Assembly (NCBI RefSeq): GCF_988242995.1
Contig: NZ_OZ547043.1
DNA: 64,000 nucleotides
Direction: 5' to 3' (one strand)
Shown here: positions 26,759-29,191 of the stretch, piece by piece
Layout: every line of letters begins with the position of its first letter
Numbering within the stretch: position 1 is the stretch's first letter
Notes under the pieces: generated by a model
The model's database searches: none
Told to the model about the DNA's origin: nothing
The model's input: the letters and a program-made list of their open reading frames with translations, nothing else
Made by a program: the position numbers and the translations under genes

Positions 26759-29191
26759 ATGAGTGTGATTGCGCAGGCAGGGGCGAAAGGTCGTCAACTG
26801 CATAAATTTGGTGGCAGTAGTCTGGCTGATGTGAAGTGTTATTTGCGTGTCGCGGGCATTATGGCGGAGTACTCTCAGCCTGACGATATGATGGTGGTTT
26901 CCGCCGCCGGTAGCACCACTAACCAGTTGATTAACTGGTTGAAACTAAGCCAGACCGATCGTCTCTCTGCGCATCAGGTTCAACAAACGCTGCGTCGCTA
27001 TCAGTGCGATCTGATTAGCGGTCTGCTACCCGCTGAAGAAGCCGATAGCCTCATTAGCGCTTTTGTCAGCGATCTGGAACGCCTGGCGGCGCTGCTCGAC
27101 AGTGGTATTAACGATGCGGTGTATGCGGAAGTGGTGGGTCACGGTGAAGTGTGGTCGGCGCGCCTGATGTCTGCGGTGCTTAATCAACAAGGGCTGCCAG
27201 CGGCCTGGCTTGATGCCCGCGAGTTTTTACGCGCTGAACGCGCTGCGCAACCGCAGGTTGATGAAGGGCTTTCTTACCCGTTGCTGCAACAGCTACTGGT
27301 ACAACATCCGGGTAAACGTCTGGTGGTGACCGGGTTTATCAGCCGTAACAACGCTGGTGAAACGGTGCTGCTGGGGCGTAACGGTTCCGACTATTCCGCG
27401 ACACAAATCGGTGCGCTGGCGGGTATTTCTCGTGTAACCATCTGGAGTGACGTCGCCGGGGTATACAGTGCCGACCCGCGTAAAGTGAAAGATGCCTGCC
27501 TGCTGCCGTTGCTGCGTCTGGATGAAGCCAGCGAACTGGCGCGTCTGGCGGCTCCCGTTCTTCACGCCCGTACTTTACAGCCGGTTTCTGGCAGCGAAAT
27601 CGACCTGCAGCTGCGCTGTAGCTACACGCCGGATCAAGGTTCCACGCGCATTGAACGCGTGCTGGCCTCCGGTACTGGTGCGCGTATTGTCACCAGCCAC
27701 GATGATGTCTGTTTGATTGAGTTCCAGGTGCCCGCCAGTCAGGATTTCAAACTGGCGCATAAAGAGATCGACCAAATCCTGAAACGTGCTCAGGTGCGTC
27801 CACTGGCGGTTGGCGTGCATAACGATCGCCAGTTGCTGCAATTTTGCTACACCTCAGAAGTGGCCGACAGTGCGCTGAAAATCCTCGACGAAGCGGGATT
27901 ACCTGGCGAACTGCGCCTGCGTCAGGGGCTGGCGCTGGTGGCGATGGTCGGTGCAGGCGTCACCCGTAACCCGCTGCATTGCCACCGCTTCTGGCAGCAA
28001 CTGAAAGGCCAACCGGTCGAGTTTACCTGGCAGTCCGATGACGGCATCAGCCTGGTGGCAGTACTGCGCACCGGACCAACCGAAAGCCTGATTCAGGGGC
28101 TGCATCAGTCCGTCTTCCGCGCGGAAAAACGCATCGGCCTGGTATTGTTCGGCAAGGGCAATATCGGTTCCCGCTGGCTGGAACTGTTCGCCCGTGAGCA
28201 GAGCACGCTCTCGGCGCGTACCGGCTTTGAATTTGTGCTGGCAGGTGTGGTGGACAGCCGCCGCAGCCTGTTGAGCTATGACGGGCTGGACGCCAGCCGC
28301 GCGTTAGCCTTCTTCAACGATGAAGCGGTCGAGCAGGATGAAGAGTCGCTGTTCCTGTGGATGCGCGCCCATCCGTATGATGATTTAGTGGTGTTGGACG
28401 TTACCGCTAGCCAGCAGCTTGCTGACCAGTATCTCGATTTTGCCAGCCACGGTTTCCACGTCATCAGCGCCAACAAACTGGCGGGAGCCAGCGACAGCAA
28501 TAAATATCGCCAGATCCACGACGCCTTCGAAAAAACCGGGCGTCACTGGCTGTACAACGCCACCGTCGGTGCGGGCTTGCCGATCAACCATACCGTGCGC
28601 GATCTGATCGACAGCGGCGATACTATTTTGTCGATCAGTGGGATCTTCTCCGGCACGCTCTCCTGGCTGTTCCTGCAATTCGACGGTAGCGTGCCGTTTA
28701 CCGAGCTGGTGGATCAGGCGTGGCAGCAGGGCTTAACCGAGCCTGATCCGCGTGATGACCTTTCCGGCAAAGACGTGATGCGCAAGCTGGTGATTCTGGC
28801 GCGTGAAGCGGGTTACGACATCGAACCAGATCAGGTGCGCGTGGAATCGCTGGTGCCTGCCCATTGCGAAGGCGGTAGCATCGACCATTTCTTTGAAAAC
28901 GGCGATGAACTTAACGAGCAGATGGTGCAACGGCTGGAAGCGGCCCGCGAAATGGGGCTGGTGCTGCGCTACGTGGCGCGTTTCGATGCCAATGGCAAAG
29001 CGCGTGTGGGCGTGGAAGCGGTGCGTGAAGACCATCCGCTGGCATCACTGCTGCCGTGCGATAACGTCTTTGCCATCGAAAGCCGCTGGTATCGCGATAA
29101 CCCTCTGGTGATCCGCGGACCAGGCGCAGGGCGCGATGTCACCGCCGGGGCGATTCAGTCGGATATCAACCGGCTGGCGCAGTTGTTGTAA
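26759..29191 (+). CDS. metL: Bifunctional aspartokinase II / homoserine dehydrogenase II (810 aa)
   Basis: MSVIAQAGAKGRQLHKFGGSSLADVKCYLRVAGIMAEYSQPDDMMVVSAAGSTTNQLINWLKL... Confidence 0.97.
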   Translation: MSVIAQAGAKGRQLHKFGGSSLADVKCYLRVAGIMAEYSQPDDMMVVSAAGSTTNQLINWLKLSQTDRLSAHQVQQTLRRYQCDLISGLLPAEEADSLISAFVSDLERLAALLDSGINDAVYAEVVGHGEVWSARLMSAVLNQQGLPAAWLDAREFLRAERAAQPQVDEGLSYPLLQQLLVQHPGKRLVVTGFISRNNAGETVLLGRNGSDYSATQIGALAGISRVTIWSDVAGVYSADPRKVKDACLLPLLRLDEASELARLAAPVLHARTLQPVSGSEIDLQLRCSYTPDQGSTRIERVLASGTGARIVTSHDDVCLIEFQVPASQDFKLAHKEIDQILKRAQVRPLAVGVHNDRQLLQFCYTSEVADSALKILDEAGLPGELRLRQGLALVAMVGAGVTRNPLHCHRFWQQLKGQPVEFTWQSDDGISLVAVLRTGPTESLIQGLHQSVFRAEKRIGLVLFGKGNIGSRWLELFAREQSTLSARTGFEFVLAGVVDSRRSLLSYDGLDASRALAFFNDEAVEQDEESLFLWMRAHPYDDLVVLDVTASQQLADQYLDFASHGFHVISANKLAGASDSNKYRQIHDAFEKTGRHWLYNATVGAGLPINHTVRDLIDSGDTILSISGIFSGTLSWLFLQFDGSVPFTELVDQAWQQGLTEPDPRDDLSGKDVMRKLVILAREAGYDIEPDQVRVESLVPAHCEGGSIDHFFENGDELNEQMVQRLEAAREMGLVLRYVARFDANGKARVGVEAVREDHPLASLLPCDNVFAIESRWYRDNPLVIRGPGAGRDVTAGAIQSDINRLAQLL

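Follow-up and report, generated by a model that had tools for sequence, protein, structure and literature searches.

Convergent overlap of metL with a transposase-like gene in Enterobacteriaceae as a probable by-product of tight packing and stop-codon displacement

In the window, i.e. the whole stretch of 64,000 nucleotides analysed, metL (aspartate kinase / homoserine dehydrogenase II, 810 aa; plus strand, 26759..29191) and a convergently oriented ORF of 376 aa (minus strand, 29155..30285) share their last 37 bp (29155..29191). This convergent overlap, to which an earlier note had drawn attention, was borne out by the ORF list and the sequence, and the PGAP annotation of other genomes agrees. 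The overlap is very probably a genuine and evolutionarily stable tail-to-tail arrangement that arose because the genes are closely packed and one stop codon was displaced, and does not represent a designed feature; it exists because no spacer is present between the 376-aa gene and metL.

The overlap is delimited by the TAA stop of metL (29189-29191) and the TGA stop of the ORF (reverse complement of TCA at 29155-29157). According to the phase notation of PMC2174442, the genes are arranged in phase 123:213, in which the third codon positions of metL and the 376-aa ORF coincide: the 37 bp comprise the stop, 11 full codons and one base of Asp365 of the ORF, and the last 11 codons, the stop and one base of Ile799 of metL. 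As the overlap is set by both stop codons, the choice of start codon is unable to remove it. The antisense strand of metL contains few stops (mean run of 28-68 codons); according to phase, the first one is encountered at codon 12, 8 or 49, and in consequence, any gene abutting the metL stop would overlap by 37, 26 or 147 bp. The observed overlap lengths correspond to the first antisense stop in the respective phase, and the 37-bp length is the chance expectation.

The C-terminal sequence of MetL, IQSDINRLAQLL, was invariant in all of the 30 or more loci examined (metL identity between genera, 94-100%) and both stops are unambiguous; the suggestion that the true stop of one gene differs was therefore not supported. 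In the ORF family, the last conserved residues in the alignments are Tyr366-Asn367 (both invariant in alignment A5, Asn367 nearly invariant in alignment A7), whose codons TACAAC (29185..29190, minus strand) coincide with the reverse complement of the Leu-stop of metL (GTTGTA). The subsequent codons 368-376 (NCASRLISD; 29158..29184, minus strand) are the antisense translation of the last metL codons. The tail after Tyr366-Asn367 varied among homologues in length (3-36 residues) as well as in sequence, and silent metL changes rewrote it (Ser to Arg, Arg to Leu), e.g. CGG>CGT resulting in Ser372>Arg; the last block of the ORF had a pLDDT of 57 in the AlphaFold model, which was confident except for the last 6 residues. 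The variable homologue tails mark the ORF extension as read-through into sequence that has not been conserved on behalf of the ORF. The earlier note had named homologues terminating upstream of the overlap as evidence against its interpretation, and such evidence was largely obtained, with the family core ending at Tyr366-Asn367. The last nine ORF codons look dispensable. Judging from these alignments, metL is the dominant partner, its protein being unchanging while the ORF tail follows silent metL variation; the case thus shows which partner dictates the common sequence.

The same junction was found in 1182 of 5426 complete E. coli genomes, and the identical 37-bp overlap occurred in Pseudocitrobacter cyperus, P. 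vendiensis, E. whittamii and Escherichia sp. An overlap of 26 bp in another phase (123:132) was present in Klebsiella, Kosakonia, Phytobacter, C. braakii and Citrobacter sp. wls619; the genes of other Citrobacter and of Superficieibacter were separated by spacers of 26-91 bp with REP-like inserts. The two overlap forms differ in register: Tyr-Asn is followed by 7 nt and the reverse complement of metL in the 26-bp form versus Tyr-Asn being itself the reverse complement of metL Leu-Leu-stop in the 37-bp form, a difference that fits a 14-nt deletion. Relocated copies of the ORF have kept 23-33 of 45 bases of the reverse complement of the metL 3' end at that register (null mean 12.6; p <= 0.0008 in six loci). 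This metL fossil gave a clear signal in the register-specific test only: plain blastn returned a metL remnant at locus L018 alone (E 0.045), the protein-level search for a metL remnant beside the relocated copies returned none, and the Salmonella enterica homologue contained no metL fossil after Tyr-Asn.

Based on the distribution and the fossils, we infer what the ancestral arrangement was and that the change ran from 26 to 37 bp. An ancestor of many Enterobacteriaceae would have carried the pair of transposase-like ORF and 5'-nucleotidase gene between metL and metF, the ORF overlapping metL by 26 bp (phase 123:132). The Escherichia/Pseudocitrobacter line would then have undergone a 14-nt deletion between two direct repeats of TAYAAC, i.e. 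the ORF's own Tyr-Asn codons and the reverse complement of metL Leu-Leu-stop, and the ORF would have come to lie 14 nt deeper in metL; in the resulting phase 123:213, termination would have shifted by another 11 nt to the antisense stop that comes next, giving the overlap of 37 bp. The steps by which a real convergent overlap forms may hence be visible here: loss of the spacer, a small repeat-mediated deletion, and run-on to the next antisense stop.

A regulatory device is the strongest competitor of this by-product reading, but an improbable one: complementary 3' ends would mutually dampen expression, either through colliding polymerases or through antisense RNA and RNase III, and methionine synthesis would be coupled to nucleotide scavenging. 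The absence of a spacer is in its favor, as is the negative result of the consensus terminator scan of 28600-32500, which called no terminator between the two genes in either direction. Inside metL, the strand in ORF sense exhibited no significant structure (z -0.04), so that transcription of the ORF probably continues into metL. Many genera have, moreover, kept the genes abutting or overlapping, and the promoters respond to different signals: metBL is under MetJ control, whereas a perfect CRP consensus, TGTGATTACTCTCACA, is located at 30343..30358 in the divergent promoter region between the ORF and the metallophosphatase / 5'-nucleotidase gene (517 aa; plus strand, 30418..31971). This site was the sole match in 64 kb (0.04 expected). 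The nucleotidase, the divergent partner with which the ORF was always paired, is suggested to be secreted from a reading of its hydrophobic N-terminus. However, neither length nor phase of the overlap is conserved: the sequence comparison yielded 37 bp, 26 bp or none, which argues against a designed regulatory overlap. Furthermore, the genes are parted by REP insertions in several Citrobacter, the overlap is missing from two further configurations common in E. coli, and metL read-through would be limited by a strong hairpin just past its stop. No match to Rfam was obtained over 28000-33000 at E <= 1. If the arrangement is indeed a by-product, it demonstrates that genes can stay overlapped in several genera although nothing points to a function of the overlap as such.

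The aforementioned hairpin (29206..29264, plus strand), detected by folding and not by the terminator scan, is imperfect, with a 13-bp outer stem and a GC-rich inner stem. It starts 15 nt past the metL stop, is situated inside ORF codons 341-360, and represents the longest inverted repeat (I1) in the region; the folded 111-nt stretch 29180-29290 reached -41.8 kcal/mol (z -4.7; 0 of 200 shuffles as stable). Directly after it follows a U-rich tract, GUUUAUGUA (29265..29273, plus strand). The U-tract of the window, GUUUAUGU, is weak (5 U in 8) and was not called by the terminator scan; the K. pneumoniae counterpart, UCUGUUUUUC, was called. Since no intergenic DNA is left, hairpin and U-tract (29206-29273) are probably the transcription stop signal of metL, and they may be regarded as a candidate metL/metBL terminator. 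K-12-type and 5-gene-island E. coli possess a canonical terminator hairpin at the equivalent place just past the metL stop. The hairpin was present in the 37-bp lineages and in Klebsiella and absent from copies not adjoining metL; Kosakonia and Phytobacter (26-bp overlap) showed no comparable hairpin (z about -0.3). Compensatory changes were found at 2 of 27 pairs (10 sequences from two lineages) in a region that is protein-coding as well. The hairpin lies within a conserved protein segment, LSAGRVTQ, and part of the DNA conservation may reflect the protein. The residue and codon choices under the hairpin differ between Escherichia/Pseudocitrobacter and Klebsiella (QAVF/QILL versus RPEF/ILVS). 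If the hairpin does act as a terminator, translation of the ORF would prevent it from ending the ORF's own mRNA.

The wider proposal is tentative and holds jointly that the 'LTxTxSG'-type tail of the family stems from antisense metL and was carried to other loci, and that the hairpin is the metBL terminator, reached separately in Escherichia/Pseudocitrobacter and in Klebsiella; as a whole we consider it possible, though the less likely outcome. If true, the tail would be a lasting imprint of the partner gene on a protein, and the hairpin an example of a transcription signal written in the protein-coding sequence of the neighbour.

The earlier note had further regarded the DNA to the right of metL as extra DNA whose junction lies within coding sequence. 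A segment of 29193..32202 is indeed absent from K-12-type E. coli by sequence comparison, and K-12-type homology ends at 29192, one base past the metL stop; the boundary therefore places the last 12 ORF codons within metL DNA, and that part of the claim, namely a boundary touching coding sequence, stood. The designation as extra DNA was not upheld. ORF and nucleotidase gene were found between metL and metF (the conserved right flank; plus strand, 32353..33243) in at least nine enterobacterial genera, i.e. Klebsiella, Kosakonia, Phytobacter, Citrobacter, Superficieibacter, Kluyvera, Salmonella, Pseudocitrobacter and Escherichia, and the nucleotidase identity between genera (87-97%) indicated a divergence similar to that of MetL and MetF. 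Going by synteny and divergence, the gene pair has long resided between metL and metF; the picture of an insert is thereby corrected to that of an interval whose pair is missing in K-12. At this site, K-12 contains 198 unrelated bp with a small terminator and a REP-like element. A derivation of the K-12 intergenic DNA as an island remnant was rejected, just the last ~56 bp before metF being in common. Plasmid matches turned out to be chromosomes or chromosomal fragments filed as plasmids (two records of 4.9 Mb); the one such record inspected carries metB-metL...metF-katG.

A recent foreign or mobile insertion of the 3-kb segment, with its left end inside the metL coding sequence, is accordingly a very unlikely explanation. 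It would account for the absence of the segment from about two thirds of E. coli genomes, for the drop in GC from ~0.58 (metL) to ~0.43 (ORF), for the transposase-like fold and IS1-type zinc ribbon of the ORF product and for the paralogous modules at other loci. Apart from the synteny in nine genera and the MetL/MetF-like divergence of the nucleotidase, it is contradicted by the search for IS-like ends, which returned no terminal inverted repeats or target duplications around the segment, by the intact metL with its native stop, and by the unrelated sequence in K-12, which is not an empty site.

The 376-aa ORF is a real gene, annotated as 'cytoplasmic protein' or 'hypothetical protein'; homologues were present at 37 genome loci from about 35 species. 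Its product combines an N-terminal zinc ribbon of IS1/InsA type with an RNase-H-like (DDE transposase/integrase) fold; the predicted fold matches DDE enzymes. The zinc ribbon match of the window protein was weak (21 bits versus a cut-off of 28), and InsA was matched by 9 of 53 relatives. The predicted first-strand region (residues 118-128), where the first catalytic Asp is expected, contains no Asp. PHROGs gave just one weak match to the ORF, a transposase zinc ribbon, and a literature search by protein accession gave no match; the sole PDB sequence-profile returns, cysteine-rich zinc fingers, were dismissed as compositional. That the ORF or its last 12 codons are an annotation artefact is hardly credible: although many long overlaps in databases are mispredictions (PMC2478687) and the ORF has no significant Pfam family, it is under purifying selection (dN/dS 0.11-0.17), its AlphaFold (AF2) model reaches a pLDDT of 94.4, it has more than 250 homologues, including distant relatives that share 25-35% identity, the position of a stop is not open to misprediction and recurs unchanged in over a thousand genomes, and real long cases were found among convergent overlaps only (PMC2478687).

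With regard to known systems, the ORF differs from the IS1 transposase (InsA / InsAB') in being single-copy, syntenic and under purifying selection, in lacking inverted-repeat ends and the Asp at residues 118-128, and in scoring below the NCBIfam cut-offs; with a median of one place per E. coli genome, it is not multi-copy like an active IS1/IS1595-type element. It looks like a domesticated derivative and not like an insertion sequence. The genomic region 'GR 31 metL..metF' of ExPEC/APEC strains, for which nucleotide processing or scavenging has been proposed (PLoS One 2026, PMC12928451), occupies the same chromosomal site and has the same right-hand nucleotidase gene. It differs by its 5-gene form, consisting of a Tsx-like channel, three UshA-like nucleotidases and a 374-aa homologue, the latter positioned 4.6 kb from metL without overlap; the ORF table of PMC12928451 omits the transposase-like ORF. 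A transposase-like gene near a CRP site and next to nucleotidase and Tsx genes constitutes an uncharacterised candidate regulator of nucleotide scavenging.

Intrinsic terminators at convergent genes, including bidirectional ones, have reportedly been found in the SEnd-seq work of Ju et al. 2019. The metL hairpin resembles such terminators in its stable GC-rich stem, its U-rich 3' side and its position directly past the metL stop; it differs in that it lies wholly in the coding sequence of the convergent gene and is long and imperfect with a weak U-tract. Shared or bidirectional intrinsic terminators of convergent genes are also a subject of bioRxiv 10.1101/2022.10.23.513370. With excludons and overlapping-transcript regulation, as outlined in PMC7154746, the present case has in common the convergent genes and transcripts that are likely to overlap; here, the overlap is short and differs between lineages, and neither long antisense transcripts nor opposing functions are in evidence. 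The overlap is, in fact, an ordinary further case of a known kind, the convergent overlaps that originate when a stop codon is displaced or a 3' end extended (Lillo & Krakauer 2007, PMC2174442; Palleja, Harrington & Bork 2008, PMC2478687). As in that class, two real genes are involved, one frame runs to the next in-frame stop inside its neighbour, the C-terminal lengths of orthologues differ, and the extension is not conserved for itself. What sets it apart is that its history appears to be readable: two phases (123:132, 26 bp; 123:213, 37 bp) occur in sister lineages, a 14-nt repeat-mediated deletion plausibly connects them, and relocated paralogues carry a fossil of the partner gene.

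In the window, the gene order rpmE-yiiX-metJ-metB-metL is followed by two additional genes and then by metF-katG. The TAA stop codon of metL (26759..29191, plus strand) occupies positions 29189-29191 and the TGA stop of the adjoining 376-aa ORF (29155..30285, minus strand) is the complement of 29155-29157; the 37-bp convergent overlap claimed in the earlier note is confirmed by these two stop positions. Because two stop codons set its limits, the overlap cannot be removed by annotation choice, and it recurs in the PGAP annotation of other E. coli genomes. In the phase notation for convergent overlaps of Lillo and Krakauer (PMC2174442) it is a 123:213 overlap, in which the two genes share third codon positions. 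Read antisense, metL presents its first stop at codon 12 (37 bp) or codon 8 (26 bp) depending on the phase, and the third phase extends over 49 codons; the length of 37 bp calls for no special explanation. Across positions 29100-30700, GC content falls from ~0.58 in metL to ~0.43 over the ORF and the beginning of the divergently oriented 5'-nucleotidase gene (30418..31971, plus strand).

The 376-aa ORF is a real gene, with more than 250 homologues (distant relatives at 25-35% identity) and a dN/dS of 0.11-0.17 versus six relatives. Its AlphaFold2 model (53 sequences) reached a mean pLDDT of 94.4 and a pTM of 0.93 and was poor in the last block alone (residues 371-376, pLDDT 57). The zinc ribbon at residues 74-101 matched IS1 InsA in 9 of 53 relatives, the match of the window protein being weak; no IS-like ends were found in the flanks of the ORF, and Asp does not occur in residues 118-128, the predicted first strand of the core. 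The product is best seen as a putative domesticated transposase-like protein. Truncated or frameshifted homologues (loci L041 of S. enterica subsp. arizonae, L040 of Kluyvera genomosp. 3, and L037) indicate gene decay in certain lineages.

Across 23 aligned homologues, strict conservation ends with Tyr366 and Asn367 (codons 29185-29190), past which the tails of the family vary in length and sequence. As a refutation, the earlier note had named homologues that terminate upstream of the overlap, which would show the extension to be read-through of non-conserved sequence; for the conserved part of the homologues this is essentially what was found, except that its final two codons reach 6-7 bases into the overlap. 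The tail of the window protein, NCASRLISD, is the exact antisense translation of the MetL C-terminus SDINRLAQLL, and the last 12 residues of MetL were identical at all loci examined. Among 49 close protein clusters, the tail reads NCARRLISD in 17 and NCASLLISD in 2; at the DNA level, the Ser-to-Arg replacement was traced in one case to a silent CGG-to-CGT change in a metL Arg codon, and the Arg-to-Leu replacement of P. cyperus matches a silent CGG-to-AGG change. Since the MetL end is invariant while the ORF tail shifts with silent metL changes, metL dictates the shared sequence; the variants also show that the tail tolerates radical replacements.

Three classes of junction were distinguished. 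Class 1 (37-bp overlap, phase 123:213, tail YN-NCASRLISD, YN being Tyr366-Asn367) comprises E. coli, E. whittamii, Escherichia sp., P. cyperus and P. vendiensis; class 2 (26-bp overlap, phase 123:132, tails such as YN-AAVTATAPDG) comprises Klebsiella pneumoniae, K. oxytoca, K. spallanzanii, Kosakonia, Phytobacter, C. braakii and Citrobacter sp. wls619; class 3, with a 26-91 bp spacer that often holds a REP-like element, comprises other Citrobacter and Superficieibacter. At loci L022-L032 (Citrobacter spp., Superficieibacter), the ORF core is separated from metL by inserted REP-like palindromic elements; several of these ORFs read through the element (tails such as PGGAAAYRAYG), and in two of the species the ORF runs on into metL with a 26-bp overlap. 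In class 2 DNA, TAYAAC (Tyr-Asn) is followed by 7 nt and the reverse complement of the metL end, TTACA(A/G)CA…, which with E. coli-like Leu codons also holds TACAAC. Removing 14 nt between these two TAYAAC motifs yields the exact class 1 sequence GAT-TAC-AAC-AAC-TGC. Class 1 was therefore probably derived from class 2 by a 14-nt deletion, which would have kept Tyr-Asn, shifted the phase and moved the stop 11 nt deeper into metL (26 + 11 = 37).

Independent support for the greater age of class 2 comes from ORF copies relocated beside kdsA or into Tsx/nucleotidase modules, because these keep a metL remnant at the class 2 register. The decayed fossil of ~45 nt begins exactly 7 nt past Tyr-Asn, with 23-33 of 45 bases matching the reverse complement of the metL 3' end (L018, positions 7106-7150, 33; L016, 31; L014, 26; L007, 24; L015 and L038, 23 each), compared with a null mean of 12.6 and maximum of 24-26 (5000 samples). 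The remnant of L039 is weak (19/45, p 0.02); at the fixed register none was found at p < 0.05 in the relocated copies L017, L019, L035 and L036, nor in L003, the copy of the 5-gene island described below. The 'KLTxTxSG' tails of relocated copies would thus descend from antisense-metL sequence, and the fossils imply that the relocated modules stem from a copy of a metL-adjacent ancestor.

One genome per species was scanned for the ORF, and MetL, MetF, the nucleotidase and Tsx were mapped onto the resulting 37 loci. The ORF and the nucleotidase gene were divergently paired at all mapped loci, and the pair occupies the metL-metF interval in Escherichia, Pseudocitrobacter, Citrobacter, Klebsiella, Kosakonia, Phytobacter, Superficieibacter and Kluyvera; S. 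enterica also has it, on a chromosomal fragment filed as plasmid, and in S. arizonae it is degraded. The nucleotidase is 87-97% identical to that of the window, in step with the identities of MetL and MetF. This shared placement and matching divergence argue against the former description of the pair as extra DNA and for an old resident, probably ancestral to the interval, as judged from synteny rather than a rooted tree. The plasmid-collection matches H43, H44 and H46 are in fact chromosomal records, whole or fragmentary: two measure 4.9 Mb, and one from Salmonella, 178 kb in size, holds metB-metL…metF-katG. The number of plasmids credited with the ORF gene is consequently inflated.

A 3.5-kb query spanning the locus revealed three metL-metF configurations among 5426 complete E. 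coli genomes: the window type, the K-12 type, from which the gene pair is absent, and a 5-gene island ('GR 31 metL..metF' of ExPEC/APEC strains, PMC12928451) encoding a Tsx-like channel, two further nucleotidases, a 374-aa ORF homologue and the right-hand nucleotidase as in the window. A junction-centred 300-bp query was fully covered in 1182 genomes of this set; in the remaining genomes the match ends at query position 150-152 (window 29190-29192). Subtraction from the 1837 genomes obtained with the 3.5-kb query, rather than a direct count, suggests the island in ~655 genomes. In E. coli GN02050 (L005, 9207-16397) the island lies at the window's site, with three UshA-like nucleotidases in all. 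Its ORF is 76% identical to that of the window versus 98% for the right-hand nucleotidase, which suggests a mosaic origin. In K-12-type genomes, window 29193-32202 is replaced by 198 bp of unrelated sequence (L004, 1792-1989), which hold a REP-like element, a small terminator hairpin and a 44-aa ORF present in the annotation; this locus is no simple empty site.

No terminator was called by a consensus scan between metL and the ORF. The metL-sense RNA just beyond the stop was nevertheless predicted to fold at -41.8 kcal/mol (z -4.7; no shuffle equally stable), its core being the region's longest inverted repeat (29206-29232/29238-29264), built from ORF codons 341-360 and followed by GUUUAUGU; ORF-sense RNA inside metL gave no excess structure (z -0.04). 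With mononucleotide shuffles (own script), class 1 and Klebsiella showed a strong hairpin (z -2.3 to -6.1); it was absent from copies away from metL, the 5-gene-island copy, Citrobacter with REP spacers, Kosakonia and Phytobacter, the latter two being counter-examples with a class 2 overlap. In K. pneumoniae it is followed by UUUUU and was called by the terminator scan; a consensus fold of 10 sequences kept 27 pairs, 2 with compensatory changes between two lineages. The K-12 type and the 5-gene island carry canonical terminator hairpins at the equivalent site. The hairpin may tentatively, and with some doubt, be regarded as a candidate terminator of metBL that lies within the coding sequence of the neighbouring gene. 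Within the 132-bp divergent region between ORF and 5'-nucleotidase gene, the perfect CRP consensus TGTGATTACTCTCACA (30343-30358), matched nowhere else in the 64-kb window (0.04 matches expected), suggests putative cAMP-CRP control, like that of other nucleoside-scavenging genes.

That the overlap is a designed antisense regulatory device appears improbable, given its variability between lineages, the REP-separated forms of the junction and two E. coli configurations without it. Long real overlaps have been found in convergent orientation alone (PMC2478687, PMC2174442), and the metL/ORF pair fits convergent overlaps arising from stop-codon displacement or 3' extension (PMC2174442, PMC2478687); to this established class it adds a further case, resolved in unusual detail, rather than a phenomenon of a new kind.
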